Shown here in pieces: positions 2,517 through 31,015 of a stretch of 64,000 nucleotides of DNA. Positions within the stretch are counted from its first letter, which is position 1. Every line of letters begins with the position of its first letter. The notes below the pieces were generated by a model. It was given only the letters and a program-made list of their open reading frames with translations. It did not search any database and was not told the origin of the DNA. This stretch comes from a virus: positions 4,052-68,051 of the IMG/VR virus record IMGVR_UViG_3300030093_000028, one strand, 5' to 3'. The translations under genes and the position numbers were made by a program.

Positions 2517-4298
2517 TTAGTACATATTTGGTCTTTTATTCAATCTTTTCATTTGTTTTGCATAAGATTTAATATCAAAAGAAACCTGCGGCTTCTGAAG
2601 AATTTCACGCTCAAGCTGACACTGAACCCAATAATTATACGCCAATGAACTGTAGCGGTCTTTTCTCATACCAGTCTTTTCTATAATTTTGATATTAGTT
2701 CCCTTTATCTCATGCTCAAGCTTTGTAAGCTCATATATCAACAATGTCGTTTGTATATACGGCATTTTATATTGTAATTGCTCAAAAGGCTGCATCTTTG
2801 CATAGCCTTTTATTTTATCTTTTAAGATTTCTTCTGCTTCGAATTCCGAGACAAGAAGATTAATCTTACCCTGTTTAAATCCGCTTCTAAGCAAAATACA
2901 AATCTCATTATTAAAAGAAGCGCTCGCTTTAATAGACCAAATAACTTCTGGGGCATTAGACACTTTACATCTAGCAGCCATATCCTTATCATTACAACAA
3001 GATAGAGCGCCATATAACTCGCCTGTCTCTGGGTCTACCATGTCTCTGATAAGAGCATCGAATACGCCAAGACCGCTGCCATTCGTATCGATTACAAGGT
3101 CTGTGCATTTATACAGTTTAAACAATCTGCGAATCACAAGCGCCAATTCATCTGTATTAAGACCCTCGTGGTTTTCGAGATATATTATATTAGACACGTA
3201 ATTATTATTATTCGTAGGAATTGCGCTGTTAATTATAATTGCACTGGCATCGTTTCTATGCTTATTAGAAGCCATAAGCGCAACGTCTACAGACATAATT
3301 CGTCTTTCATTTGTTGCTAAATCTGGTATCTTATATGTCTTATTGTTTATAAGTGATGGCGGATATACTGCTGTTTGCAAAGTTCTTCTGCATCCGATAT
3401 CGTCAAATGAGAAGAAAGCGCCTTCTGTATCTCCGAAGAACAAGCAGTCCATCTCCATGCTCCACTTGACTTCATCGAAGTCTTGTTCAGACATCTCATC
3501 TTCAATTTGTTCACGTGATAACAAACCTTCTTTTACAGAAACTTGATACGGTAAGCCACAGATAAAATACTTCTTAGTATCATCAAGCATATTTACCGTA
3601 TAAGCCTTTGCCTTTTCAAAAGACCAATGGTTTTTATACCACGCCGAACTCATATAGAACTCTTTATTTCGTTCTAGAAGATGTGCGTATTTTGGATTAT
3701 TTAAATAATTCGGCTGTCTTGGAGCTGTAAGGAATCGTCTCAATACCGTGTTAATAGTATCTAGGTCAACCATTCTAAACTCATCGACCAACAAAATATT
3801 AGCACGTGAACCACGACCAGAATCAGAAGCGGTAACGACTTTAATCCATGAACCATTTGCAAATTCAATTACGGCCTTATTTGCGCCAACGGCAGCATAT
3901 GTAATTTCTCGTCTAAGATTTTCAGAACCAAAACCATAGTTCTTCATGAAATCGTCTGTGATTTTTGACAAAACCTCATTCGCCTGTGGTCTTGTTGCAG
4001 ACGCAATACATATCTTTGTCTTTGGGAAAAGAATGCATCTAACAACACAAAATAATGCTGTTAGCCACGTTTTTCCCTGTCCTCGCGCAGCGATATACAT
4101 AAAGAAATTATTGTGCATCATTGCATACAATAATATCTTTTGAAATAGTTTTAATTTAATATTTAAGTAATCAGCAACAAAACGATGTGGGTTAGACCTA
4201 TAAAAACCAGCCCACAATGCAATACCGTTCATAATACGTTGTGATTTTTCATTAGCGATTTCTTTTTCAGATTTTTTTCTATTAACTTTATTCGCCAT
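2517..4298 (-). CDS. terminase large subunit
   Basis: Walker A-like ARGQGKTW near the N-terminus followed by a C-terminal nuclease-like domain. Length is 593 aa. Sits in a packaging-module context. Confidence 0.85.
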   Translation of the reverse strand: MANKVNRKKSEKEIANEKSQRIMNGIALWAGFYRSNPHRFVADYLNIKLKLFQKILLYAMMHNNFFMYIAARGQGKTWLTALFCVVRCILFPKTKICIASATRPQANEVLSKITDDFMKNYGFGSENLRREITYAAVGANKAVIEFANGSWIKVVTASDSGRGSRANILLVDEFRMVDLDTINTVLRRFLTAPRQPNYLNNPKYAHLLERNKEFYMSSAWYKNHWSFEKAKAYTVNMLDDTKKYFICGLPYQVSVKEGLLSREQIEDEMSEQDFDEVKWSMEMDCLFFGDTEGAFFSFDDIGCRRTLQTAVYPPSLINNKTYKIPDLATNERRIMSVDVALMASNKHRNDASAIIINSAIPTNNNNYVSNIIYLENHEGLNTDELALVIRRLFKLYKCTDLVIDTNGSGLGVFDALIRDMVDPETGELYGALSCCNDKDMAARCKVSNAPEVIWSIKASASFNNEICILLRSGFKQGKINLLVSEFEAEEILKDKIKGYAKMQPFEQLQYKMPYIQTTLLIYELTKLEHEIKGTNIKIIEKTGMRKDRYSSLAYNYWVQCQLEREILQKPQVSFDIKSYAKQMKRLNKRPNMY

Positions 4299-4309
4299 AC
4301 AAACACCGC

Positions 4310-5323
4310 CTAATCATCGTCTATAACGGTGTCGCCAAAAATGGCATCAAATAAAGCTTCGTTGTCTTTATCGTCATCATACTCTGGCTTTTCAACCGTA
4401 TACCTTTTCATAAATTTCGTATACAGTTTTGATAAGCCGTTTTTCAAATTCATCATCTTAGCAAGATGACCGCGAAAAAATACATCGATATAAAGACCTA
4501 TATTGTCAACATCTTTCAAATCATCCTCTGGCTCTGGAATCGGCCTTGTGTTTTCCCACTTGTCGATAAGCGTACCAAATGTCTGACTGTCAGATGTGGC
4601 ATCGCCAGAATTTTGTTTCGGCTGCAATTTGGCTGTGTCAAGAAGCTTCTGGAACGTAGCCGTCAAATCCTTTGTATCCTGCTTTGCCCTAGTAGCCTTT
4701 AACAACTCAAGCTGATTAAAACACAGCTGCTTAAAGACTTCTTCTTGTGCCTTTGTATTGCACTCGTGTCTAGTAGTCCAGTCGCAATACTCATTGTAAA
4801 GAAAAATATAATCATCATTATCGAAACCATTACCAAACAACTTTATCGCTTTGTCTATGGTTTCGTTCATGTCAGAGTCATCATCTGAATATATTGATAT
4901 CGGCTTATTATTAAACTTTGCTTCATTATATCTTTCTTCTAACGTTCTATCATAACCACCTCTGTACTGTCTAAGTGGTGAAATCGAGATATAAGAAGAT
5001 ATGAGAGAGCATGTTAAATCGCCATCTTCCATTCTTTTAACAGTGGCATTATATGCATCATCGCAAAAATATACATCTAAAAACATGCATATTCGCTCAA
5101 CGGCTTTTTTTTCTGGGTTTGCATATCCGTTGGTTTTATATACGTTTAAATAATTATAATAAATTTTATTAATGCATTCTTTGCACCACGGCATCTTTCC
5201 ATATGAAGCATATAAGTCACTATTTGATTTATAAAAATCTTTTGACTTAAGCTCCTTACCACAACAAGCACAATGCAGTGTCGAAGTGGAGTCATCATTT
5301 TTTCTAGCTGTTCTTCCCGCCAT
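4310..5323 (-). CDS. hypothetical protein with N-terminal Cys4 zinc finger; possible terminase small subunit
   Basis: CACCGK...CKEC motif. Lies directly upstream (minus sense) of terL, with a 12-nt gap. Confidence 0.4.
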   Translation of the reverse strand: MAGRTARKNDDSTSTLHCACCGKELKSKDFYKSNSDLYASYGKMPWCKECINKIYYNYLNVYKTNGYANPEKKAVERICMFLDVYFCDDAYNATVKRMEDGDLTCSLISSYISISPLRQYRGGYDRTLEERYNEAKFNNKPISIYSDDDSDMNETIDKAIKLFGNGFDNDDYIFLYNEYCDWTTRHECNTKAQEEVFKQLCFNQLELLKATRAKQDTKDLTATFQKLLDTAKLQPKQNSGDATSDSQTFGTLIDKWENTRPIPEPEDDLKDVDNIGLYIDVFFRGHLAKMMNLKNGLSKLYTKFMKRYTVEKPEYDDDKDNEALFDAIFGDTVIDDD

Positions 5324-5353
5324 ACGACACTACACCACCTTTCTTCAAACAAA

Positions 5354-6661
5354 CTATTTAAATTTAATATCGTAAATACAATCAAGCCCATCTTCTGTTA
5401 TCACGGAAATCAACTGCTCTGGCTTGTTTCTAAGCCTTTTATCTAAGCAATATTCATCTCCGCCACCAGCAAACGTACCAGCCTGAAGAACCTTTGTATC
5501 ATAAGATGTAACCATTGCATTCGTATGTCTATGACCACAATAAATAATATCTGGTTTTCTACCAGTAAACATAGTTAGCTTCTGAACCATGTTGTTTAGA
5601 TTATCGCGATCACCATGCACCCCATATATCAACTGTCCGCGAACATTGAATATAGCAATGCTGCATTCAATATCGTTTTCGTGAAATACTACATTTTTAA
5701 AATTCTGTAGCTTTGCACTGAGATAGGGGATAGCAAGCAAGTCCATATTCTCTCCACGCAAATTCTCATCTTTATTCTGAGAAAGACGGGAGTGATTGCC
5801 CATGCTTACATACACATTTACAGTATTAAATCTATAACTTAACTCTGTTAAGAACTGAGACAGATAATCTGTAACAGTTAAAAACTGCTCAATGATGTTC
5901 TGATTATTTTCAATTCTAATAGTATTATGAATGAAGCCAGAGATGAGTTCGCTTAGAATGACATAGATGTTCTCTGAACCGTGACGTAACTGAACTTCAA
6001 AAATCTTATCAAGATATTGATTAATTCTATCTCGCAAAATATCGTTATTAAACTTATTGAAATAATTATCTACTTCAATACCAGTATGCACATCAAAGAA
6101 AGTGCATACGATATCATTATCTGACTTTAAAGAGCCAGTGAACTTCTTGTCTTCATCATAAAAAAGCGGGTGACAGTCGCTTTCAGAAATGCTTCTTATG
6201 ATTTGCTCTTTGTAGCTTTCTTTTCGCGCCTGTTCACGAATCATCCTACGGAGTTCATTGCGCTCATCACGAACCTTAACTTGCTGCTTCTCAAGTTCTT
6301 GTTTTTGAGATTGCAATTCTTTTAGATATTCATCATTGTCATATTTATTAAACACACCAGCATCATAAAACTTTTTTGCCTGCTGATATGGTTTTCTAAA
6401 TGCCGAGGAAGTATAAGGCATATCTTCATTGCCGATTTCCTTGTTAATGATATCGGCCAGTTCGTCCCAATTCATATCTATAATTCCAGATTCCTTGGCT
6501 TGCCCAAGTCTCCAAATATATTGTTCTAGATTTTCAGATTCGCCTTTATGTAAATCCACGTATGGCACCTCCTCATATTTTTTCATCTTGCAGTAACAAA
6601 ACAAGATGATGGTGAAATATTTGATTTTCACAAATATCTTCCAAACTTTTACTTCATACAC
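5354..6661 (-). CDS. calcineurin-like metallophosphoesterase with N-terminal HTH/coiled-coil extension
   Basis: Motifs DVHTG, GDRD, GNHS and GHRH in the C-terminal half match the D-x-H / GD / GNH(D/E) / GHxH metallophosphatase signature. The start codon is ambiguous (GTG at 6661 or ATG at 6586). Confidence 0.6.
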   Translation of the reverse strand: MYEVKVWKIFVKIKYFTIILFCYCKMKKYEEVPYVDLHKGESENLEQYIWRLGQAKESGIIDMNWDELADIINKEIGNEDMPYTSSAFRKPYQQAKKFYDAGVFNKYDNDEYLKELQSQKQELEKQQVKVRDERNELRRMIREQARKESYKEQIIRSISESDCHPLFYDEDKKFTGSLKSDNDIVCTFFDVHTGIEVDNYFNKFNNDILRDRINQYLDKIFEVQLRHGSENIYVILSELISGFIHNTIRIENNQNIIEQFLTVTDYLSQFLTELSYRFNTVNVYVSMGNHSRLSQNKDENLRGENMDLLAIPYLSAKLQNFKNVVFHENDIECSIAIFNVRGQLIYGVHGDRDNLNNMVQKLTMFTGRKPDIIYCGHRHTNAMVTSYDTKVLQAGTFAGGGDEYCLDKRLRNKPEQLISVITEDGLDCIYDIKFK

Positions 6662-10523: not shown

Positions 10524-11462
10524 CTATATCATCCCAATCTTCATCAGCAGCTTCTTCTTGTTTGAAATCTCGCGCATATAGTAGCCCTCACCGCAAGTCA
10601 TCAGATAGCCGTTCTCACGTTTGTACATATTGCACACGAGAGTGTGGTTGGTTCTCCATTTGCCGTCAACCTTGACTCTCGGCAGCGGCTCATAATAGAG
10701 AAGTCCAAGTTCATACAGCACCTTTACCGCCTGCGACATTGCTCTTTCTGAAATACCAATCTCCTCAGCTTCATCACGATAGAACATATTCATGACCTCT
10801 GGCTTCTTTGTTCTTCTGCTTTCAACTGGATTTTCATGACATGCATCTTCGTTGGATAGCCTATTTGGCCTATTTCGTATATTCATCTTAAGGTATGCGT
10901 ATACACGAAGCAGGATATCGTTGTTCACATATTTGCTCTTGGTGTCATATTCCATAATCTTCTCATACTCATCAAGATATACGATGGCGAAGTAATCCGT
11001 ATCGCATTCGTCCTTCACTTTTCCGTTGTTGAATTCGGCAATGCACATCTTGGTATTCTCGATACCGCCATCAAGAGATAGGTAGCCAAGATCGCAAAGG
11101 TCATTCACGGCAGATACAAACTTAGAGTTTATACCGCGACTGTGCCTATCAGAGTTCTTACCGTGCCATTTGACCATCCAGTTGATATTGAACATCACCT
11201 TATCGTCCAGACCTCTTCTCACGGCAAAGAACATAAATGTCGTGATAAGCATATCATTTGAATCGCTGTTGACGATAATCGCTTTGGGGATACGAAAGTA
11301 AACACCGTCATTACCATCAAGCTTAGACTTTGAATCGTATTCATATAAGGTATTATCAGACAATTTGACACCTCCAAGCAAGTTCAAAACATTTGAATTA
11401 TACCACACTTTCCGTGGACAACTAATAGAAATCTTTAAGTTGTCCACGTTTTTTGTGGACAA
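10524..11462 (-). CDS. winged-helix DNA-binding protein (replication initiator or transcription regulator); 5' end overlaps operator palindromes
   Basis: C-terminal AEEIGISERAMSQAVKVLYELGLL is HTH-like. The annotated TTG start lies inside palindrome 1. The nearest in-frame ATG is at 11252. Confidence 0.5.
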   Translation of the reverse strand: MSTKNVDNLKISISCPRKVWYNSNVLNLLGGVKLSDNTLYEYDSKSKLDGNDGVYFRIPKAIIVNSDSNDMLITTFMFFAVRRGLDDKVMFNINWMVKWHGKNSDRHSRGINSKFVSAVNDLCDLGYLSLDGGIENTKMCIAEFNNGKVKDECDTDYFAIVYLDEYEKIMEYDTKSKYVNNDILLRVYAYLKMNIRNRPNRLSNEDACHENPVESRRTKKPEVMNMFYRDEAEEIGISERAMSQAVKVLYELGLLYYEPLPRVKVDGKWRTNHTLVCNMYKRENGYLMTCGEGYYMREISNKKKLLMKIGMI

Positions 11463-11546
11463 GTGTAAAAAGTAACTGACTTGTCCACGTTTTTTGTGGA
11501 CAACTATACCATTATACCCCTACTTGTCCACGTTTTTTGTGGAAAT
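11412..11546. promoter_or_regulatory. operator-like cluster: three TTGTCCAC-N7-GTGGACAA palindromes at ~42-bp spacing plus one half-site
   Basis: The palindromes lie at 11440-11462, 11481-11503 and 11524-11546 (the last has a degenerate right half). The half-site is at 11414-11421. The extended motif GTGGACAACTATACC is shared with the second cluster at 20181-20287. Confidence 0.65.
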
Positions 11547-11629
11547 TTATACATTCCTAACAAAATAGATATATACAAAATAGATAAATATGTCTACGAC
11601 AAAATAATAGCTATGTGGGTATGGGGATA

Positions 11630-11865
11630 TAGACCATATCAAAGACATAGATAATCTTGGACAAATTTGGATGTCTTCTATATAAGAACTCCAAATTTGT
11701 CCCATTAGTTTTATCTATTTAATAAATATCTATTCTAAAAAAAATAGCCGTATCAAAAGATATAAGAAAATCAATATTACAGATATGAAAATATAGACTG
11801 TATCAGAGATATAAAACTTACTATATCAGAGATATAAAAATAACCTACATCAAAGATATAGGAGT
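11630..11865. repeat. iteron-like direct repeats ATCARAGAYATA (5 copies) in an AT-rich non-coding region, plus a 12-bp inverted repeat
   Basis: The copies read catatcaaagacatagat, tatcaaaagatataag, tatcagagatataaaac, tatcagagatataaaaa and catcaaagatataggag. The inverted repeat is GGACAAATTTGG (11659-11670) / CCAAATTTGTCC (11691-11702). Confidence 0.45.
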
Positions 11866-12589
11866 ATAGCATCTACGATGCTGACGATATGTAGATATAT
11901 TACCTAATTATAATGTCATATTAATTAAATACGAAGCATAGATAACGGTATCACCAATTATATCTTAATGCTAAATAGCTTTATATCAAGTGTATATTTC
12001 TTGTTATTTATATTGTCCTCAATAACATATTAGATTGAATATTAATAGCTTCTATATCTATGTTGTTGATATGTAGTTATATTTATATGCATAACCGGAT
12101 AGTTTCCTTTTTTAAATTGCCACCAATTCAATAGCTTATCTTATAGCATATTTATTTGAATATAGATCGCTTTGTTGTATTGGTGTTTATTTGGATGTTT
12201 ATATGTCTGCAAATATAGATCGTATACGTATTTCGATTGTTATCTTATGTAGTTGCATATTGGTTTCCTATCTATTGCCATCTGGTCATACCGTATATTT
12301 TACCGTTTATAAATTGTTATATATGTAGTTATATATTGTTGGTATGTAGATAGATTTCCAGAGTGATATAGATGAATTTATAGTGGGTCAGATATTTTTT
12401 TCGGTTGTGTTTAGATGAAACACATAGCTAGGATCAACAATAAAAAAAACGAACCAGAAGTTTTAATACACCCCCATACCCCTATCTACCTGCGGTTTTG
12501 TCGTTTTGTAGTGTAGTTTATTACCCCTACAATGTGCAATAAAAACGGTGGGGGCATGAGTGCAAAAAAAACAGGGGGTATTGCACTTG

Positions 12590-12680
12590 AAAAACTAACC
12601 CCCTATAGCCCACACAAAAACTAACCCCCCATATAACGTTCAAAAAAACCAACCCCCCATATAACGTTCAAAAAAACCAA
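12590..12680. repeat. C-tract repeats, including a tandem 28-bp duplication of AACCCCCCATATAACGTTCAAAAAAACC
   Basis: The two copies lie at 12623-12650 and 12651-12678. The related unit AAAAACTAACCCCC lies just upstream. Confidence 0.6.
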
Positions 12681-12710
12681 CCCCCTGTTTAGAACGAACG
12701 ACACAACGAA

Positions 12711-12896
12711 AGTTTTCAACAGGTTTTCAACATATCTAATACCATTAAATAGTTTTCAACAGAGTTTTCAACAACTTTTCAACAGATCCATGACTTTTCA
12801 ACAGAGTTTTCAACAACTTTTCAACAGATCCATGACTTTTCAACAGAGTTTTCAACAAAAAAAGTTGTACAACAAAGTTTTCAACAAACCTAATAC
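12711..12896. repeat. array of ~11 TTTTCAACA direct repeats, including an exact 42-bp tandem duplication
   Basis: The unit cttttcaacagatccatgacttttcaacagagttttcaacaa occurs twice (12775-12816 and 12817-12858). The region is non-coding, and ORF 12790-12981 is a repeat artefact. Confidence 0.65.
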
Positions 12897-13449
12897 TAGA
12901 AACAAACTGCAATTTATGCAAATTTTCGTTAAAACAGCCCTGTTTTATGCGTTTTTTTGCATATCGACCCCAAAACCTTAAACCTAAACTTGAACCTTAA
13001 GTATGCGCGTTTTTGTATATATCGACCTGTTTTATGCATTTAATATAGCTATGCGCTAGTAGCATATTGTAGTTTTCATCGTTATGGCATAGCTGTTTAT
13101 CTGCTGTTTTATTGTAAATGTGTTGAGAATGTGTATTACCGCACAAGCCACTTTATGCACTGTATAGTTTGAGCCGTCAAACAGGAACCCAAACGAAAGG
13201 ACGAAAGCAAACAGCGGGCTAGCAACCCAAACACATATAGGCACCTGTTATCTATATGGGTGTGCCGTCTATAGGCGGCGTAGTGTACCTATTGCGCGTG
13301 GTGATGTGGGTCAAACTGATAAGCCATTGCAAGACTATAGGGAAGCTATCTCGAACCTTGAGAACCGCATATTAAAATATAGGACGCAACACAAACGGCG
13401 CTTATGCCTACACGTCAACCACCTAAAACCACTATTTAAGGAGTTTACT

Positions 13450-14952: not shown

Positions 14953-14983
14953 GGGGAACTCTATCCCGAGTTCCCCTTTTTTT
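14953..14983 (+). terminator. intrinsic terminator GGGGAACTC-N5-GAGTTCCCC followed by T7
   Basis: Perfect 9-bp stem followed by TTTTTTT. Confidence 0.65.
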
Positions 14984-14984
14984 A

Positions 14985-15360
14985 TGGAAAAAGTTATGGA
15001 GATTCTATAATTTTTTCGTGGAGAAAATGTGGAGATTTTGTGTGCGATCCATAGTTATGGAGAAAATGTGGAGAGTATGTGGAGCTTTGATGGAGATTTT
15101 ATGTGCATCTGATGGAAAAGCTATGGAGATTTGATGGAAGTTTCATGGATAAATACTAGACTGGGATATGGAGAAACTGTGGAAAACTAACACACTGGAA
15201 AATTACAGACTGGAAAATACCGAAACGCGCTAAAATGGAGTAGTACGCGAAACCAACTGGAAGGGCGGAAAAATGTTTCGGAAAATCGTAGACTGGGCGA
15301 ATACCAAAGACGGTAGGGAGGTTCTAACTGGAATTATTTGTGGAGCTGTTGGAATCTTTG
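14985..15360. repeat. dense array of short direct repeats (R)TGGAGA (~10 copies) and CTGGAAAA (~4 copies) in non-coding DNA
   Basis: Examples are tggagaaaatgtggagatttt, atggagaaaatgtggagagtatgtggagc and ctggaaaattacagactggaaaatacc. ORFs 14883-15134 and 15230-15424 are artefacts of this array. Confidence 0.5.
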
Positions 15361-15550
15361 CGGTAAGACTCTTCTGCTTTTTGGTGTGCTTGGCGACTGG
15401 ATACCCTGCGGATATTTGGAACATTTTCGGTTAGGAAAAATGGAGCGGATTAAATATCTGCTCTTTTTTTTGCGGAAAATGCTACGGAAAAGATAGCGCT
15501 TTGCTGGAAAATCTCGCGCACACGCCACGGATAAATGATAATATGTAATC

Positions 15551-15650
15551 AGTCGGAGGGACAAAGGCACCGAACATAGCCCACCTATTATGACTTACAC
15601 GTTCTCTACAGTTCTGTACTTTTTAAAGTTAGCTAGGTGGAACTTTTAGT
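15551..15650 (+). ncRNA. candidate ~100-nt small RNA, copy 1 (paralogous to 17378-17480)
   Basis: ~75 percent identical to the second copy. Preceded by a -10-like gataatatgtaat. Ends with the conserved hairpin AAAGTT-N10-AACTTT followed by TTTT. No ORF is present. Confidence 0.35.
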
Positions 15651-15758
15651 TGTGTATGATTGTATGGAGAAAATATGTAGGTATGTATTGTCGTGCTATC
15701 TGGCGTGGAACTATGGCAATATATAACTAACGAAAGGCACCAATCGAAAGGACGAGCC

Positions 15759-16067
15759 ATGAACGAGACGAACACGCGGAAGTTTTCGGCACTTGTGAAT
15801 GAGCTGGGATACAAGCTCTTGGCTATCGAGTTTGCCTATGAACTCAACGATAAGGAGCTTGGAGATACGCTCAACACCATCGCCGATAACTGGAACATGG
15901 AGTTTACCGAGGATAACACTGGACTTGTCCATGTGAGCAATTACGAGGACGAGGAAGAAGATTATACTTACAGTGACGAGGGCGAACCGAGCTGGACGGA
16001 ACTAATGCAGGACAACTATCCTAGTGATGAGAACGGCAAAATCTTTGACACCCCGAGCGGCTTTTAG
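15759..16067 (+). CDS. small highly acidic hypothetical protein (102 aa)
   Basis: Conserved leader ...ctatggcaatatataac...cgaaaggacgagccATG. The protein is rich in D/E. Confidence 0.5.
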   Translation: MNETNTRKFSALVNELGYKLLAIEFAYELNDKELGDTLNTIADNWNMEFTEDNTGLVHVSNYEDEEEDYTYSDEGEPSWTELMQDNYPSDENGKIFDTPSGF

Positions 16068-16081
16068 CCGCTCTTTTTTTA
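16055..16081 (+). terminator. intrinsic terminator GAGCGGC-TTTTA-GCCGCTC followed by T8
   Basis: 7-bp stem plus a T-run overlapping the gene end. Confidence 0.65.
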
Positions 16082-16190
16082 TCTATGTTTAATTGTGTTG
16101 ATACTGTGATGGAAAAGATTCTCGACAATCTCGATTCAATAAGTGATAAATTATAAGTACAGAAACCAACCACAAGGAAAGGAAAGAACG

Positions 16191-16658
16191 TTGGCTACTA
16201 AGACTTTTGATTTTGGCAAGATTGACTACTATGGTCGTGGTCGTAAGATTAACCCCGTCACCGTCGAGGTTGAGTTGACGGTAAAGGACGGCAAGCCCTG
16301 CTTTTCTGCTATGGGCATGGTTTACAATCAGTCAAAAACCGATACCGTTGCTGGCGGTCAATGCCTAGATTCAATCGCAAAGCGCACTAAGAACAAACAG
16401 TTCATGGAGATTTGCCGTCTGTGGAAACTGTACCACCTAAACGATATGCACGCTGGCACTATCGAGCAGGAAGAAGCGATTAAGGACTGGGAGTCGAAGG
16501 GGAATCGCTACGATTATACTAGCGCTTGCGAGTACCTTAAAAGCGTTGGACTTTATGAGGTTGAACATAACGGCAAGCCTTACACCTATGGTAGCGGTTG
16601 GCTTTACTGGGATATTCCCGAGGACGATTTGAAGATTATTCAAGCGCTTTTTAATTAA
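16191..16658 (+). CDS. hypothetical protein (155 aa), probable TTG start
   Basis: Leader ggaaaggaaagaacgTTG is positionally equivalent to the GAAAGG-N8-ATG leaders of the neighbouring genes. Confidence 0.45.
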   Translation: MATKTFDFGKIDYYGRGRKINPVTVEVELTVKDGKPCFSAMGMVYNQSKTDTVAGGQCLDSIAKRTKNKQFMEICRLWKLYHLNDMHAGTIEQEEAIKDWESKGNRYDYTSACEYLKSVGLYEVEHNGKPYTYGSGWLYWDIPEDDLKIIQALFN

Positions 16659-16662
16659 GCGA

Positions 16663-16690
16663 CTACCAAAGGGGAGCGGTAACGTTCCCC
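16663..16690 (+). terminator. intrinsic terminator GGGGAGCGG-TAAC-GTTCCCC then TATTTTC
   Basis: Hairpin plus T-rich tail. Confidence 0.5.
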
Positions 16691-17003
16691 TATTTTCTTG
16701 TCTTTAAATGCTACTAATTCAGTATCAATATCGACAACAGAATATAAAGCACTGTAAGCCGTTTTAAGCCCTTATATTTTCTGGCTGGATAACTTATACC
16801 CGACAATCATTTAACAGCCCTTAAATCGAATCTGGCGGGCTTGTAGCGGCAAATGCGGCTGGACTACCCTAGCGCATTTAACGGACAACCTAAGCAACAA
16901 AAGCTGGACAGCATAAAAAACAATATATGAAGAAAGTATGTAGGCGCTTGAATCGTGGTACTATCTAACCAACAAGAAAAGCACGCGAGAAGGGCGGCAC
17001 AAA

Positions 17004-17264
17004 ATGAAAACCATCACGCGAACTGGCAAGTATTTACACGCGGTAGCAGAAGGAAGGAAGGACGGCACGGAGCTTGTGAAGACGTGGGAGCTTTGTTCTA
17101 AGGCGCGTAAGCGTTATGCACGGCACTTGGTCGAGGTGTACGGTTGGGACGCGCGTATGGCTATTCAACGCGCCTATATTTTCGGCTACGACTTTATGCC
17201 CTATAGTTACAAGGAGAAGCGTCCTATTATGGAAACGCGCACGAAAAAGAGTTTCGGCTTTTAG
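17004..17264 (+). CDS. hypothetical protein (86 aa)
   Basis: Upstream conserved promoter-like element cgTGGTACTATcTAACC (16956-16970) and RBS GAAGGG. Confidence 0.5.
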   Translation: MKTITRTGKYLHAVAEGRKDGTELVKTWELCSKARKRYARHLVEVYGWDARMAIQRAYIFGYDFMPYSYKEKRPIMETRTKKSFGF

Positions 17265-17272
17265 ATTCTGGC

Positions 17273-17300
17273 GCTCACTGAAAAGGTGGGCGCTTTTCTT
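17273..17300 (+). terminator. intrinsic terminator GCGC...GGTGGGCGC followed by TTTTCTTTTG
   Basis: Hairpin plus T-run. Confidence 0.45.
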
Positions 17301-17377
17301 TTGTGTATTCATTTGTGAAGAACTTATGAATCTGGGAATCACAATCTCACAACCTAAAACTATGGTATTATATAACT

Positions 17378-17480
17378 AGTCGGGAGGACAAAGCGACCAA
17401 CATACGCCACTCATAATGACTTATTTATTGAGCTACAGTTATGCCTATTTTAAAGTTAGCTACTAGAAACTTTTGTCTAG
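17378..17480 (+). ncRNA. candidate ~100-nt small RNA, copy 2 (paralogous to 15551-15650)
   Basis: The extended -10 promoter ctaTGGTATtaTATAAC (17358-17374) is immediately upstream. The copy starts agtcgggaggacaaagcgacc and ends with the hairpin AAAGTT-N10-AACTTT followed by TTTTG. No ORF is present. Confidence 0.4.
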
Positions 17481-17565
17481 ATATAGTTATGTGAAGATAC
17501 TATGGAGACGAGTAAACCGTGGTACTATTTAATCAATGAAAGAAACCAAACGAAAGGTGGTACAA

Positions 17566-17784
17566 ATGTTATTCAAAGATTTGCGGAGTGTTTGGGGCGG
17601 CATGGTCAACGTAATTGTCTATGCCATAGATAAAGCGCCGCTCACGATTGAGGACTACCCGTTTGATATGGTGCAAAAGCGCCCGTGGCTTGACAATTGT
17701 GAGGTACGCGCTATTGAGCCTGACGCATATGTGCAACGTGATGGTCACTCAAGTTGCGTTGTCAAGTTAGACTATAGGGGATAG
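17566..17784 (+). CDS. hypothetical protein (72 aa)
   Basis: Promoter-like cgTGGTACTATtTAATC (17519-17535). RBS GAAAGG then ATG 17566. Confidence 0.5.
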   Translation: MLFKDLRSVWGGMVNVIVYAIDKAPLTIEDYPFDMVQKRPWLDNCEVRAIEPDAYVQRDGHSSCVVKLDYRG

Positions 17785-17787
17785 CGA

Positions 17788-17820
17788 CAAGCCCACCGCA
17801 AAAGGTGGGCTTTATTTTTG
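17788..17820 (+). terminator. intrinsic terminator GCCCACC-GCAAAA-GGTGGGC followed by TTTATTTTTG
   Basis: Perfect 7-bp stem plus T-run. Confidence 0.65.
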
Positions 17821-17905: not shown

Positions 17906-18148
17906 ATGGTTTTCAATTTTAACATTGACGATTTTCTCAAGAGGTTTGATGATAACTACGATTTTCTCTATGATGCAAGCAGGAACGGTAGCGAAGTGGC
18001 GGGACAGCGAGAAGCTACAGACGCATTTGATGATTTTTTGAAGGAGCATAGAGATTTTGTGTGCGAGTTCGTGAAGTATCGTGGCGATGTTATCTCTAGC
18101 GACAGAGAAGCAGCGGCGTTTATGTTTACCCTATATGACTTTTGCTAA
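17906..18148 (+). CDS. hypothetical protein (80 aa)
   Basis: Promoter-like ctaTGGTATcctTTAATCAA (17858-17877). RBS GAAAGG then ATG. Confidence 0.5.
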   Translation: MVFNFNIDDFLKRFDDNYDFLYDASRNGSEVAGQREATDAFDDFLKEHRDFVCEFVKYRGDVISSDREAAAFMFTLYDFC

Positions 18149-18610: not shown

Positions 18611-18817
18611 ATGGCGAAAATGCGGCAGTACACCTACCTAGAGATGACTAAGATTGTCAAGCGCAATGGGTATGCCTATGTGCGGTGTACTGGCGACCAC
18701 TGTATCTATAAGCGCGAGGACGGCAGCGGTACTATCGTGCTGGCGAAAAAGAAGCATATTAACCCTTGCATTGCAAGGCGGCTTATCAAAGAACACAATT
18801 TGATTGTTGACTTGTAA
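18611..18817 (+). CDS. hicA: HicA-like (YcfA family) mRNA-interferase toxin homolog, orphan
   Basis: The 68-aa sequence ...YLEMTKIVKRNGYAYVRCTGDHCIYKREDGSGTIVLAKKKHINPCIARRLIKEHNL matches the HicA consensus (K.G....R..GSH.I...P.G....IP.H....G.....I.K). No HicB-like partner was seen downstream. Confidence 0.55.
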   Translation: MAKMRQYTYLEMTKIVKRNGYAYVRCTGDHCIYKREDGSGTIVLAKKKHINPCIARRLIKEHNLIVDL

Positions 18818-19543: not shown

Positions 19544-19576
19544 TAGGGACTGGGTATCTAGTCCCTATTTTTTTGT
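19544..19576 (+). terminator. intrinsic terminator TAGGGAC-N10-GTCCCTA followed by T7
   Basis: 7-bp stem plus T-run. Confidence 0.6.
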
Positions 19577-19901
19577 CTAGTCTTTGGAATATATGGCATT
19601 GCATTTTATACGCGATATAGCGCCTATTTACCCCCGATATTTTCTCTATGGGTACTTGCTAGGGTCGAGTGCTTATCGGGGCAAATAGGGTCAAATAAGA
19701 CGCTCTAAGCCTATAAAACGACCCTTTTGAGAATGGGGTACACAACGTCAAAATACACGACCAAAGACAACGCGGAAAATTACACCATACAGACCGACTA
19801 TCATTGTATGGAGAAACTGTGGAGACGGATATTCTCAATTACACACGGAAAATCTTTGGTACTATATAACCAAGGTAAAGCACCAGACGAAAGGTGAGAA
19901 C

Positions 19902-20180: not shown

Positions 20181-20287
20181 TTTTCCACAAAAAACGTGGA
20201 CAACTATACCCTATTTATGATACTTGTCCACGAAAAGTGTGGACAAGTAGGAGAGTTTTGCAACTTGTCCACGGAAAATGTGGACAA
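20181..20287. promoter_or_regulatory. second operator-like cluster: three TTGTCCAC-N7-GTGGACAA palindromes at ~42-bp spacing
   Basis: Sites at 20181-20203 (degenerate left half), 20224-20246 and 20265-20287. The first site carries the same GTGGACAACTATACC extension as the cluster at 11440-11546. The cluster lies upstream of gene 20456. Confidence 0.65.
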
Positions 20288-20455
20288 CCTAAAGATACTA
20301 CACACTTTGTTATCATTTGTGGAATATCTAGCAAGATGGAATATATAATTATGGAGATAAAGTGGATTGCTAGATTTAAAGGGGTCGATTTCGATGCCTT
20401 TAAACGCATGTGATATACTTTGGATAAAGAAAACCACGAGACGGAAAGGTTTCAT

Positions 20456-28719: not shown

Positions 28720-30340
28720 ATATTTAGTCCGCTGATGCAATGCGGACTGCTACGAAAAAAGTTTTCAAAATTTTCTAAAAAGTTGTTGACATAGATATAG
28801 GCACCATGTAATATAGTTGATGTCAGAAAGAGACGCGGACAAATCGCAGATCAATCTGATGAGCACCTTGAGAAAAGAAGATGGAAAAAGTTCAAAAAAG
28901 TTCTTGCAACTGATAAAGTTAGATGCTATAATATCTGACACAGAGAAACGGAAGTTTCCAGTTGCACCTTGATATTTACATAGAGTATCAGCGTTGAGAA
29001 ATCAACGCGAAGGATTGTTTCAACCATGTGTATTCACGACTCCACGTGGTCATGGGCGTGTTCGAGGAGTCCCACTATGGAGGATACCCCATAGGTAGGC
29101 TTTGCCAGATGTAGGTAACTGGCTTCTGGTAGAAGAGGTGGAAAATCTCAACCGAGCAGACACGGCGCTGTGATGAAACGCAAGAAAATGGTATCGCTAA
29201 CTGGTTGCTATCGCAATAGATATGGAATATATTCCATTGAACCAAGTAGAGGGTAGTGTGGCAGCTATGCCAATCGCTTGGAGTGCCATAAGATAGTTGT
29301 CCAATTGATGCTGGTAATCAGCTATAAGACCAGACGCGAGTACGAGTAGCCCAAAGTTGGATTGTATTAGAAGATTAATATGCTGAATGGTGGGTGAAAG
29401 TTGTTGGTAGCCAATCCAGCCATAGATTGACGTAAAGTCGGGATGGAAAGATATGGGGTCGCTCCCTGTGTCTCAGCTCCATTTCCTATGTTACCGAATT
29501 ACCACTACGTTTTATGAAGGTAAGGCGAAGGCCTGAGACAATCTTTCGCGTTGGTTTGCTTGACCGACAAAGCGAGGTTCGATTCTGTGTTAGTCTTTTG
29601 GTTGATTTCACTAACGCAGATGGTACGGTACGATTCCGTAGACGGAAAATGTTTTGACTCCTTTCTGTTTTGGTTTAACGGTTGTTCCTTGCGTGTGAGT
29701 TATTTGACTTACGTTTTCATTTTCCGTCAACGCTCAGTCCCAAGGTTTACGATGGAGATAGCTACCTGACAAGTCTTGGGCGCATGGTAACGGCGTAATG
29801 TTACCCCTTGTCTTAACGGAGGAAGCGGACTGTTAAGCGTACACCGTTGCGTAAAATCGGTAGCGTTGGAAGGTCTGCCAGCGCGGACGGTATTTAAAAT
29901 AAGTGACCCCTCTGGTAGCTGGTGAGGACTTTAGTAAGCTACCACCGTCTATGGAGTATATATTATCATTGCGTGTTGTTGTATGGTATGAACAGATTTA
30001 TTTCCAGAATCTGTCATCGACAGAATGGGCAGGCCAGAGTCGAGTAGTCGTTCAATTTGCTCTTCTTTTGAGATGTCATCGTACTCGATAAGAGCATATA
30101 GACCATGCTTGAAAAGTATATATTCCATAGACGGTAATGTGACTTGGCGGTGTGGCGAAATCGGTATACGCTATGCTTTAATGGGCAAAACAGGTAGCTC
30201 CTGTATGCAAGTTCAAATCTTGCCACTGCCAATGGAACGTTACCGTCTATTATAATGGCTATGGGGGATTCGCACAACGGTTAGGGCAAGGGCCTTATAA
30301 GCTCTAGAAGAGTGTTCAACTCACTCATCCCCCACCATAA
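28720..30340 (+). ncRNA. ~1.6-kb ORF-free, GC-richer, densely self-complementary region: candidate large structured non-coding RNA adjacent to the tRNA array
   Basis: No ORF above 90 aa on either strand. Many long-range complementary pairs, for example GACGGAAAATG (29644) / CATTTTCCGTC (29720), GGTAGCT...AGCTACC (29913-29946) and CTGTCATCGACAG (30011-30023). Contains the tRNA-like element 30146-30231. Composition differs from the flanking coding DNA. Confidence 0.35.
30146..30231 (+). other. tRNA-like element with long variable arm but non-canonical anticodon arm (pseudo-tRNA or part of the large RNA)
   Basis: Acceptor GGCGGTG/CACTGCC pairs (with one G-U). T-arm GCAAG-TTCAAAT-CTTGC. Extra arm ACAGG-TAGCT-CCTGT. 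The 17-nt anticodon arm does not fold canonically. Confidence 0.3.
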
Positions 30341-30341
30341 T

Positions 30342-30414
30342 GGAGTCGTAGCTCAGTCGGAAGAGCAGGGGACTTTTAATCCCAAGGTCGTGGGTTCGAT
30401 TCTCACCGACTCCA
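30342..30414 (+). tRNA. tRNA-Lys (anticodon TTT), CCA encoded
   Basis: Acceptor GGAGTCG/CGACTCC. D-arm GCTCAGTCGGAAGAGC. Anticodon loop CTTTTAA. T-arm GGTCGTGGGTTCGATTCTCACCGAC. Confidence 0.8.
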
Positions 30415-30418
30415 CCAC

Positions 30419-30492
30419 GGACGCATGGCGCAGCTGGTTAGCGCAGATGCTTTACACGCATAAGGTCGTAGGTTCAAATCCTACTGTGTCCA
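30419..30492 (+). tRNA. tRNA-Val (anticodon TAC), CCA encoded
   Basis: Acceptor GGACGCA/TGTGTCC. D-arm GCGCAGCTGGTTAGCGC. Anticodon loop TTTACAC. T-arm GTAGGTTCAAATCCTAC. Confidence 0.75.
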
Positions 30493-30498
30493 CCAATT

Positions 30499-30580
30499 GC
30501 CGCAGTAATCCTTTAAAGACGAGGGTTGGACTGTAAATCCAATGTCTATGACTGGCTAGGAGCGTTACCTAGATGCGGCA
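30499..30580 (+). tRNA. putative type-II tRNA (anticodon GTA, Tyr-like) with atypical D- and T-arms
   Basis: Acceptor GCCGCAG/ATGCGGC (6/7 paired), disc A, then CCA. Anticodon arm TTGGA-CTGTAAA-TCCAA. Long variable region. The T-like hairpin CTAGG-AGCGTTA-CCTAG lacks the TTCRA motif. Confidence 0.4.
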
Positions 30581-30586
30581 CCAAAT

Positions 30587-30658
30587 GTCGGCTTCGTCTA
30601 ACGGTTAGGACATCACCCTTTCAAGGTGGAAACACGGGTTCGATTCCCGTAGCCGATA
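30587..30658 (+). tRNA. tRNA-Glu (anticodon TTC), CCA encoded
   Basis: Acceptor GTCGGCT/AGCCGAT. Anticodon arm TCACC-CTTTCAA-GGTGG. T-arm ACGGGTTCGATTCCCGT. Confidence 0.75.
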
Positions 30659-30667
30659 CCAAAACTC

Positions 30668-30749
30668 GGGGAAGTGATGGAATGGCAGACATCGGAGACT
30701 TAAAATCTCTTGCTCATAGAGCGTGAGGGTTCGAATCCCTTCTTCCCTA
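30668..30749 (+). tRNA. tRNA-Leu (anticodon TAA), long variable arm, CCA encoded
   Basis: Acceptor GGGGAAG/CTTCCCT. Anticodon arm GGAGA-CTTAAAA-TCTCT. Variable arm TGCTCATAGAGCG. T-arm GAGGGTTCGAATCCCTT. Confidence 0.75.
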
Positions 30750-30803
30750 CCAGATATATCAAGATATGGTATAATATCTTTTATATATAACAATTGATTG
30801 TGT

Positions 30804-30877
30804 GCGCCATTAACTCAGCTGGATAGAGTAACAGACTTCTAATCTGTAGGCCGTAGGTTCGAATCCTACATGGCGCA
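30804..30877 (+). tRNA. tRNA-Arg (anticodon TCT)
   Basis: Acceptor GCGCCAT/ATGGCGC. D-arm ACTCAGCTGGATAGAGT. Anticodon arm ACAGA-CTTCTAA-TCTGT. T-arm GTAGGTTCGAATCCTAC. Flanked by the 10-bp inverted repeat CAATTGATTG / CAATCAATTG. Confidence 0.75.
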
Positions 30878-30896
30878 CACAATCAATTGTACAATT

Positions 30897-30969
30897 GCCG
30901 ATGTGACTCAATTGGAAGAGTAACTGATTTGTAATCAGTCTGTTGCAGGTTCAAGTCCTGTCATCGGCT
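30897..30969 (+). tRNA. tRNA-Thr (anticodon TGT), CCA encoded
   Basis: Acceptor GCCGATG/CATCGGC. D-arm ACTCAATTGGAAGAGT. Anticodon arm ACTGA-TTTGTAA-TCAGT. T-arm GCAGGTTCAAGTCCTGT. Confidence 0.75.
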
Positions 30970-31015
30970 CCATGATTTTTTCTTGTCATAGTTGACATTA
31001 TATAACAATGGGGGC

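Follow-up and report, generated by a model that had tools for sequence, protein, structure and literature searches.

The genome of a large phage recorded in IMG/VR as IMGVR_UViG_3300030093_000028, of which a stretch of 64,000 nucleotides (nt; positions 4,052 to 68,051 of the record, here called the window) was analysed, carries among its early genes two copies of a short element without a functional open reading frame (ORF), the first 63 nt of which fold into a conserved RNA structure at what appears to be the very 5' end of a transcript. Judging from the sequences, the element represents a previously undescribed RNA family that is confined to one lineage of large human-gut phages of the Firmicutes type, and it seems to fit a known kind of RNA, the promoter-proximal structured leader RNAs of mobile elements. 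Its function is tentatively proposed, with a probability of roughly 45%, to be that of a cis-acting 5' leader of a read-through early transcript, which would be recognised by RNA polymerase or by a protein.

A short element in two copies

An initial annotation of the window had pointed to two paralogous stretches of about 75% identity, and this holds by blastn, nhmmer and covariance model alike. The stretches at 15551-15650 and 17378-17480 are 75% identical over 96 nt (blastn within the window, E 1.8e-6), and together with 50-nt flanks they align with a mean column identity of 80% over 205 columns (MAFFT). An nhmmer profile made from the pair finds only these two sites in the 64 kb (E 8e-36 and 3e-34, the next match having an E of 0.13), and a covariance model scores 89.5 bits for copy 2 and 84.4 bits for copy 1, with the next match in the window at 11 bits. 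The 5' sequences quoted in the annotation are correct as well. Both copies lie on the plus strand, 1.8 kb apart in a single array of co-oriented small early genes, each of which has its own promoter and strong terminator.

Relatives were gathered by exact-pattern scans of IMG/VR and of metagenome contigs, and 46 instances with 20 distinct 63-nt cores were obtained, with further variants in the loci L080 and L092 (related loci are cited by such L numbers where they have to be told apart). The unit had been thought to comprise about 100 nt, and while the paralogous stretch is indeed of that length, only its first 63 nt (15551-15613 and 17378-17440) are constrained. Conservation drops sharply beyond this core, where five different 3' continuations are found among the relatives. 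In none of these five contexts, with about 48 instances in total, does the similarity enter a conserved ORF, and the element is thus not part of a duplicated protein-coding leader, a possibility that had been considered in the annotation.

The fold of the core

With the A of AGUCGG in copy 1 numbered as +1, the first 45 nt of copy 1 form one irregular hairpin of three helices and 12 base pairs (bp) that is flush with the presumed 5' end of the RNA. Helix P1 pairs positions 1-5 with 41-45, including an invariant G5-U41 pair, and is followed by a 1x4 internal loop in which G6 faces A37-A40. Helix P2 pairs 7-10 with 32 and 34-36, leaving A33 bulged, and a 5-nt bulge A(C/U)AAA at 11-15 lies between P2 and helix P3 (16-18 with 29-31), which carries a terminal loop of 9-10 nt, ACCNNACAUA, of the pattern ACC(N)NACAUA. 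The hairpin is followed by a short linker and a single-stranded motif, CUACAGU, that is invariant at the DNA level (CTACAGT) in 20 of 20 distinct cores.

The support for this structure is covariation and not energy, as the full sequences of about 100 nt fold no better than shuffled ones on either strand (z +0.3 to +1.0). Standard pairs are formed in 99.4% of cells in the 20 distinct sequences versus 89.9% in column shuffles (none of 500 reached the observed value), and if the partners are slid by 1-3 columns, only 30-50% are paired. Both-sided changes are found at four core pairs of P2 and P3, namely 7-36 (GC in ten, AU in nine and GU in one), 8-35 (AU in ten, GC in ten), 17-30 (CG in 11, GC in nine) and 18-29 (GC in 12, CG in eight); copy 2 itself differs from copy 1 by four base pairs that are altered on both sides and are all Watson-Crick. 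P3 occurs in the states GGC/GCC, GCG/CGC and GGG/CCC, and since P2 and P3 states combine differently, as in L075 and L053, the counts reflect more than one event. The same three helices are predicted unprompted by RNAalifold, and minimum-free-energy folding of single 45-mers recovers P1, P3 and part of P2. Wobble variants occur as G7-U36 in L073, G10-U32 in the group of L025 and G16-U31 in L080, and because a G-U pair would correspond to C-A on the opposite strand, it is the plus strand that is structured. The initial annotation had suggested looking for covariation among phage homologs, and the compensatory changes do support an RNA fold of that strand. A long-range pairing CCACCUA/UAGGUGG, predicted once for copy 1, was discarded, being kept neither in relatives nor in copy 2.

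Four members of a second clade of relatives (clade 2, described below) have a 50-nt insertion exactly between P1 and the linker, which consists of two GC-rich hairpins, one of them with a compensatory change (CG to UA). Optional helices at junctions are a typical trait of functional RNAs, and a protein-coding sequence or a duplex-DNA site would hardly be expected to take up such an insertion. Of the 22 unpaired hairpin positions, only about three differ between the window copies, versus eight of 24 paired ones, the latter all compensated, and the tail beyond the core also differs more. As the unpaired positions are best kept, specific contacts of bulge and loop are suggested.

A micro-peptide, for example a type I toxin, has been considered because a conserved ATGACTT with an invariant ATG at +40 opens a short frame of 19 codons in one copy and 16 in the other, and the predicted peptides of 15-30 residues are rich in hydrophobic and aromatic amino acids. 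The initial annotation had recognised neither ORF nor ribosome-binding site, which overlooks these short frames and is right in that none of them looks functional: the ATG lies inside helix P1, there is no Shine-Dalgarno (SD) sequence upstream of it, neither the 1-nt indel that distinguishes the copies nor the 50-nt insertion in relatives preserves the frame, and the peptides have only MT(Y) in common. The micro-peptide was rejected on these grounds and the chance that it is real is close to negligible.

Known families do not account for the element either. Rfam 15 has no match over either copy at gathering thresholds, and relaxing E to 10 brings up nothing but noise (snoR38, with 21.5 bits where 45 are required); the same is true for L025 and L067 of clade 2. 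An undescribed class of riboswitch-like aptamer leader or self-cleaving ribozyme would be in line with a compact irregular hairpin at the transcript 5' end, with its conserved bulge and loop and with the variable insertion tolerated at one junction, but it is highly improbable, as not even at this permissive E value is there a match to a riboswitch or ribozyme of Rfam, no alternative terminator/antiterminator or platform sequestering a ribosome-binding site follows the element, and the downstream genes vary between contexts. Mimicry of Cas12a or other CRISPR repeats, K-turns and tRNA-like features were inspected by eye and are unsupported.

Promoter and presumed start of the RNA

Each copy follows an extended -10 promoter (Table 1), as the initial annotation had stated, and only the spacing has to be corrected from about 4 to 6 nt. 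The distance from the end of the -10 hexamer to AGTCGG is exactly 6 nt in every instance and in three unrelated upstream contexts: copy-1-type relatives have the hexamers TAATAT, TAAGAT or CAATAT with this spacing, copy-2-type relatives keep it throughout, and in clade 2 the extended -10 is TGcTATACT. Because the -10 box always ends 6 nt upstream, transcription most likely starts at the A of AGUCGG, and P1 would therefore take in the first nucleotide of the RNA. The terminators of the preceding genes lie 80-90 nt upstream of the window copies, and that of the 53-amino-acid gene (15442-15471) would shield the promoter of copy 1 from upstream transcription.

Dense arrays of (A/G)TGGAGA and TGGAAAA motifs are present at 14980-15200 and upstream of most early promoters, and many early -10 boxes are preceded, at a distance of 30-45 nt, by a TGTGAAGA/TGGAGA box, which may be a factor-binding or UP-like element. 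Another -10-like hexamer is conserved within the element itself at about +35 to +41 (15586-15591 and 17412-17417), reading TATTAT in copy 1, CATAAT in copy 2 and CATTAT in clade 2; it overlaps the internal loop and the invariant U41.

A structure that begins with the first nucleotide might simply be a generic mRNA stabiliser, in which the 5'-flush stem-loop and an SD-like GGAGG block decay from the 5' end without any specific partner. The early-RNA stabiliser of phage SP82 and the cryIIIA STAB-SD are reportedly 5'-terminal stem-loop or SD-like mRNA stabilisers of this type in Bacillus and its phages, and they share with the element the 5'-flush structure on an early phage transcript and a purine-rich GGAGG tract near the (here presumed) 5' end. 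That P1 includes the likely +1, that the spacing between promoter and hairpin is invariant, that GGAGG (+5 to +10) is kept in both helix versions (GGAGGGA and GGGAGGA) and that, for lack of a terminator (see below), there is downstream mRNA to protect would all agree with a stabiliser. In the element, however, GGAGG is sequestered in P2, whose pairing is upheld by compensatory change, L073 has GGGGGG instead, and it is the unpaired nucleotides that are most conserved, which points to specific recognition and not to generic protection. Since a stabiliser leaves the specific conservation of bulge, loop and CUACAGU above that of the stems unexplained, recognition by a macromolecule is preferred and a merely protective stem is considered unlikely.

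The 3' tail and the question of a free small RNA

Beyond the core both copies have AAAGTT-N10-AACTTT followed by T's (15625-15646 and 17452-17473), which had initially been interpreted as a terminating hairpin with conserved stem and differing loop. The sequences are as described, but the terminator function does not stand. Its folding free energy (dG) is -0.3 to -1.6 kcal/mol in relatives versus -11.8 to -17.7 kcal/mol for six neighbouring gene terminators, and the tail hairpins are not called by a terminator scan of the window. The stem is conserved between the window copies only: in 22 distinct relatives, nine candidate tail pairs are formed in 67.2% of cells as compared with 66.1% in shuffles, without covariation, three sequences have lost the G-C pair and nine the outer pair, and most copy-2 relatives have AAAGTT changed to TTAGTT with no compensation. 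Clade 2 has a better hairpin of 7-8 bp at the homologous position (-7.5 to -8.9 kcal/mol), but there it is not followed by a U-tract. With no stable GC-containing stem, no call in the scan and no conservation of the helix, the tail hairpin was rejected as an intrinsic terminator.

The promoter of the next gene lies within about 60-100 nt of the tail in every context. L088, a relative that has lost the core, keeps the tail before the next promoter, and the tail may for this reason belong to the downstream promoter region and not to the RNA. As there is no terminator, transcription from the element's promoter should run into the next gene as far as the terminators at 16055 and 17789.

Table 1. 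Features of the two copies and of their surroundings (window coordinates)
Feature	Position	Strand	Details
Strong terminator of upstream 53-amino-acid gene	15442-15471	+	terminator scan; dG -11.8 kcal/mol
Extended -10 of copy 1, TGaTAATAT	15536-15544	+	hexamer 15539-15544; read from sequence
Copy 1 hairpin	15551-15595	+	P1 15551-15555/15591-15595; P2 15557-15560/15582+15584-15586, bulged A15583
Copy 1 hairpin, inner part	15561-15581	+	bulge ACAAA 15561-15565; P3 15566-15568/15579-15581; loop ACCGAACAUA 15569-15578
Copy 1 linker and single-stranded CUACAGU	15596-15613	+	CUACAGU 15606-15612; covariance-model match spans 15551-15613
Copy 1 AU-rich tail with weak hairpin	15614-15650	+	AAAGTT 15625-15630/AACTTT 15641-15646; dG -1.5 kcal/mol
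Promoter of gene 15759-16067 (downstream of copy 1), TGgCAATAT	15714-15722	+	read from sequence
First real terminator after copy 1	16055-16073	+	terminator scan
Strong terminator of upstream 86-amino-acid gene, just before copy 2 promoter	17270-17303	+	terminator scan; dG -16.1 kcal/mol
Extended -10 of copy 2, TGgTATTAT	17363-17371	+	hexamer 17366-17371; read from sequence
Copy 2 hairpin	17378-17421	+	P1 17378-17382/17417-17421; P2 17384-17387/17408+17410-17412
Copy 2 hairpin, inner part	17388-17407	+	bulge ACAAA 17388-17392; P3 17393-17395/17405-17407; loop ACCAACAUA 17396-17404
Copy 2 linker and single-stranded CUACAGU	17422-17440	+	CUACAGU 17433-17439; covariance-model match spans 17378-17440, 89.5 bits
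Copy 2 AU-rich tail with weak hairpin	17441-17480	+	AAAGTT 17452-17457/AACTTT 17468-17473; dG -1.0 kcal/mol
Promoter of gene 17566-17784 (downstream of copy 2), TGgTACTAT	17520-17528	+	read from sequence
First real terminator after copy 2	17789-17812	+	terminator scan

The initial view of a self-terminated small RNA of about 100 nt is thereby borne out with respect to RNA fold and promoter, whereas its terminator has gone and a discrete small RNA has become less likely. The main rival to a cis-acting leader nevertheless is an early phage RNA that acts in trans, either by base pairing or as a decoy titrating an RNA-binding protein of host or phage, and that would be released by processing of the read-through transcript or by weak termination at the AU-rich tail. 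A small RNA processed from the read-through transcript is possible, and phages do make trans-acting small RNAs and decoys, such as the lambdoid small RNAs, RNA anti-CRISPRs and pseudo-ToxI. Like these, the element is ORF-free, has its own strong promoter and lies in an early or accessory region; its fold with conserved unpaired bases is conserved, the invariant single-stranded CUACAGU could be a seed, two copies could serve dosage, and the bulge, P3 and loop resemble neighbouring early 5' untranslated regions (UTRs), as would be expected of a decoy for a factor that reads leaders. In L030 (8050, minus strand), moreover, there is a deletion derivative in which a genuine GC-rich terminator has been brought up to the 63-nt core, and the resulting unit measures about 135 nt. 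The window's own clade, however, has no terminator or stable 3' hairpin at the element although the phage uses strong terminators elsewhere, and neither target complementarity nor likeness to CRISPR repeats or tandem ToxI-type repeats, nor a copy or target-like homolog in 185,579 reference genomes, was found. In the window there are no sites complementary to the loop or to CUACAGU near ribosome-binding sites. The sequence TATGTAGG, which matches the loop CCUACAUA, occurs on the plus strand of the window only at 15674 and 16937; this pairing was dropped, as the site is not conserved among relatives (where it reads TATGCAGG or TATGGAGA) and resembles the general TGGAGA-type upstream motif. All in all, an RNA acting in trans is somewhat unlikely, if less so than the other alternatives to a cis-acting leader.

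An RNA antitoxin for the HicA-like protein encoded nearby was also considered and rejected, since L088 keeps hicA (92.6% identity) without the RNA core; clade-2 loci, conversely, have the RNA element without hicA in the sequence examined.

Likeness to early leaders

The hairpin segment ACAAAG-NN-ACC-NAAC resembles the start of ordinary early 5' UTRs of the same phage, examples being AACGAAAGGCACCAATCGAAAGG before the gene at 15759 and AACAAAGGAAACCAGAAGAAAGG before the gene at 17906. The sequence AAAGNNACCNNNC occurs four times in the window versus 1.1 times expected, and copy 1 and the two leaders that immediately follow the copies account for three of the four. Given this likeness, the probable ancestor of the element is a promoter-leader cassette to which the flanking strands of P1 and P2 were added and from which the gene disappeared.

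That the central segment resembles ordinary early leaders could also mean that the element is a decayed promoter-leader-gene duplicate without present function, or that it acts as DNA, as an operator, a repeat or an origin-associated site. The tail motif GTTA(A/G)C...AACTT is palindrome-like and stands in tandem before the next promoter in clade 2, the tail survives deletion of the core in L088, and nearby intergenic DNA is filled with AGTCGGAA-like and (T/C)GGA(A/G)A repeats, all of which would suit a role at the DNA level. However, neither a duplex-DNA site nor a decaying pseudogene would be expected to show compensatory double changes and strand-specific G-U pairs as P1-P3 and the inserted hairpins do, conservation of the core far exceeds that of the flanking genes, the core being near-identical across phages whose flanking proteins share just 42-90% identity, and the 6-nt spacing to the -10 box is invariant. 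A DNA-level element or a functionless relic is thus very unlikely.

A proposed cis-acting leader

Because the core ends single-stranded, because neither a 3' end nor a protective hairpin is found in the window's clade and because other early genes are crisply terminated, a leader acting in cis is likelier than a free small RNA. According to the proposed mechanism, the host RNA polymerase would start at the A of AGUCGG, and the first 45 nt would fold as a 5'-flush hairpin, followed by the linker and the single-stranded CUACAGU. Without a terminator, transcription would pass through the next promoter and gene, while the transcribing polymerase or a protein would recognise the RNA by its conserved unpaired bases. 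As a result, the complex may ignore the strong terminators that follow every early gene, as in the case of the put RNA of phage HK022, and/or the transcript may be shielded from 5' decay. Roughly half of the probability given above for a cis-acting leader falls to a modification of the polymerase and the remainder to other effects in cis. More specifically, the 63-nt core might resemble put in acting independently of other factors, bind the very Firmicutes RNA polymerase by which it was made and render it resistant to the early terminators; this idea is an analogy and has to be regarded as doubtful. In a variant, the element may be a structured decoy that displays the early-leader motif AAAGnnACC and titrates a host or phage factor acting on early mRNAs.

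What the polymerase would have to pass can be read from the distribution of terminators. Strong terminators after the neighbouring early genes are more frequent than expected (15 found versus 5.8 expected in the terminator scan), with more of them up to 28 kb, all genes from 13 to 64 kb are on one strand, and about a dozen strong terminators separate the copies from the long terminator-poor replication operons on that same strand. Up to about 28 kb, strong plus-strand terminators follow almost every gene, and in the block of replication genes at 33-60 kb they are rare (only at about 44799, 50930 and 57329). This indicates two very different transcription regimes, at 13-28 kb and at 33-60 kb, on the same strand.

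Several observations weigh against a cis-acting leader as outlined here. The stability of the hairpin is modest (-6 to -7 kcal/mol, with a z-score near 0), and there is only one well-supported conserved hairpin where the put RNA has two. The sequences all come from one narrow group of phages, so that the cells counted for covariation stem from few evolutionary events, and given the likeness to early leaders, part of the conservation of unpaired bases may be due to common descent or to a motif at the DNA level. The downstream genes have proximal promoters of their own and hence do not depend on the element. Finally, the core is absent entirely from the close relatives L088 and L089 and must therefore be accessory.

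Comparison with known systems

The closest parallel is provided by putL and putR of phage HK022, two similar ORF-free RNAs of about 70 nt downstream of early promoters (PMC9378689). The putL RNA begins at about +3 of its transcript; the stems of these RNAs are irregular, with bulges, and their action is in cis, on the very polymerase by which they have been transcribed (PMC9378689). Put-type RNAs suppress termination by way of the beta-prime zinc-binding domain of RNA polymerase. The element shares with put the occurrence as two related ORF-free units downstream of early promoters and upstream of terminators, the start near the 5' end, the irregular bulged stems and, as far as the proposed action is concerned, activity as a nascent RNA whose 3' end is not defined. 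In sequence the two are not similar, however, and put has two stem-loops that form a V-shaped RNA, whereas here one hairpin is combined with a single-stranded motif. The put sites head two divergent operons, whereas the copies in the window are co-oriented at a distance of 1.8 kb, each before another promoter, the host polymerase is of the Firmicutes type, and antitermination is here only proposed. The -10-like hexamer inside the element recalls a -10-like sequence of putL that has been proposed to cause a sigma-dependent pause.

Firmicutes mobile elements and operons also carry antiterminator RNAs, namely EAR, conAn2 of pLS20 and canT of Tn916 (PMC8191782, PMC11658703). Like the element in its proposed role, these are cis-acting structured leader RNAs that let the polymerase pass many terminators, and like the element they are carried by mobile elements. 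The RNAs conAn2 (260-600 bp) and canT (341-452 nt) are far larger, conAn2 needs a partner protein for long range, no ConAn1-like or NusG-like gene was detected among the 65 window ORFs, and EAR is present in Rfam and does not match the element. Early-region RNase III hairpins, as known from T7 and SP82, are duplexes of about 20 bp inside polycistronic RNA. They resemble the element in being several paralogous, irregular, ORF-free hairpins among early genes, but the element has 12 bp, lies at the presumed +1 of its own promoter and has a terminator upstream.

Distribution in related phages

The element was recovered in about 30 contigs, all of them from human-gut samples or from one large IMG/VR sample, and many of them 125-148 kb long. 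In 185,579 genomes, one per bacterial or archaeal species (GTDB representatives), only three chance matches inside unrelated genes were found, and at this stringency the element is therefore phage-specific. Two scans in which P1 was left free returned only the known lineage and chance matches, and with the covariance model neither the window nor 55 related loci yielded any additional copy.

Two clades of phages can be distinguished. The window belongs to clade 1, whose contigs measure about 130 kb and carry the copy-1 and/or the copy-2 form: L047 and L076 have the copy-1 form alone, L018, L023, L032, L068 and L069 the copy-2 form alone, and L034 and L066 are recombinants in which the copy-1 promoter is joined to the copy-2 RNA. 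Clade 2 has contigs of about 145 kb (L025, L050, L053, L055, L061, L067, L070, L075 and L092) with one copy in another gene context. From the variable copy number and the recombinants it follows that the element is accessory and moron-like, and the two copies look interchangeable. No neighbour gene that is constant across both clades was found.

In L025 (3000-3500) and also in L061 and L075, all of clade 2, a gene for an HNH/NUMOD4-type homing endonuclease with a perfect TTGACA-17-TATACT promoter is inserted directly after the 3' hairpin of the element, and it replaces the second AGTTAAC repeat that is present in L050, L055, L067 and L070. A pairing of CAGUUAG with the second AGUUAAC repeat, predicted for clade 2, was discarded because it is impossible in the window's clade and in the variants with the HNH insertion. 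At the position of copy 1, L088 has about 1 kb of non-coding DNA (4700-5650, minus strand) that is filled with (C/T)AGTCGGAA and GCGGAAAA repeats echoing the first bases of the element.

Genomic setting and further non-coding regions

The window encodes a portal protein, terminase, RNA ligase, polynucleotide kinase, helicase, primase and DNA polymerase. The portal protein is less than 31% identical to those of large siphophages of Bacillus, Staphylococcus, Lactococcus and Clostridioides, and no close cultured phage was found by DNA similarity in INPHARED. A Pfam search of the 65 window ORFs gave no NusG, ConAn1-like, antiterminator, sigma, reverse transcriptase or Cas domain. The surroundings of HicA-like and small early genes described in the initial annotation are present: a HicA-like ORF of 68 amino acids (18611-18817, Pfam E 2.5e-7) lies 1.1 kb downstream of the copies. 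It is 89-97% conserved among clade-1 relatives, including L088 which is without the RNA element, and has no recognisable HicB adjoining.

Further non-coding regions are found in the vicinity. An ORF-free stretch of 260 nt at 16692-16950, between a terminator and the next promoter, is 77-88% conserved in 16 related loci and is a candidate for a second non-coding RNA; RNAalifold predicts a long-range helix TTTAAATGC/GCATTTAA that encloses further stems, with a double change in one pair only. Another ORF-free stretch after a terminator, at 19569-19770, is 77-87% conserved in 13 related loci and is unrelated both to the element and to 16692-16950. Between the divergent structural (minus strand) and early (plus strand) genes lies a repeat-packed non-coding region of 1.8 kb (11460-13300) with TTGTCCACG-N6-TGTGGACAA inverted repeats and with repeats of AGTTTTCAACA (12710-12870) and of AAAAACTAACCCCC (12590-12680). 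The ends of many related contigs lie only a few kb away from this region, which may be a genome end, an origin or an assembly break. Three more TTGTCCACG...TGTGGACAA inverted repeats are located at 20190-20290, and as the same motif is present at 11430-11545, the two sets bracket the early gene block. A full-length ROOL RNA is encoded at 29000-29553 (293 bits against a threshold of 99), followed by a cluster of eight tRNA genes at 30145-30972, among which the anticodon type of 30145-30232 is not assignable by ARAGORN; the window has tRNA genes only at 30.1-31.0 kb according to the same program.

Significance

RNA elements that reprogram RNA polymerase or shield transcripts are, to our knowledge, described from very few phages, and we know of none from large uncultivated gut phages of Firmicutes. 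If the element only stabilises a leader, it is a tidy but ordinary feature. If it is put-like, it would be without precedent among phages of Gram-positive bacteria, and polymerases would set out from each copy on long read-through towards the middle (replication) genes. The element is small (63 nt) and sharply bounded, and natural compensatory as well as insertion and deletion variants are at hand. If it proves to be an antiterminator or a protein decoy, it would be a compact new transcription-control part for Gram-positive hosts. An antiterminator or a decoy would also help to explain how these phages time the transition from early to middle expression without recognisable sigma or antiterminator proteins in the window.

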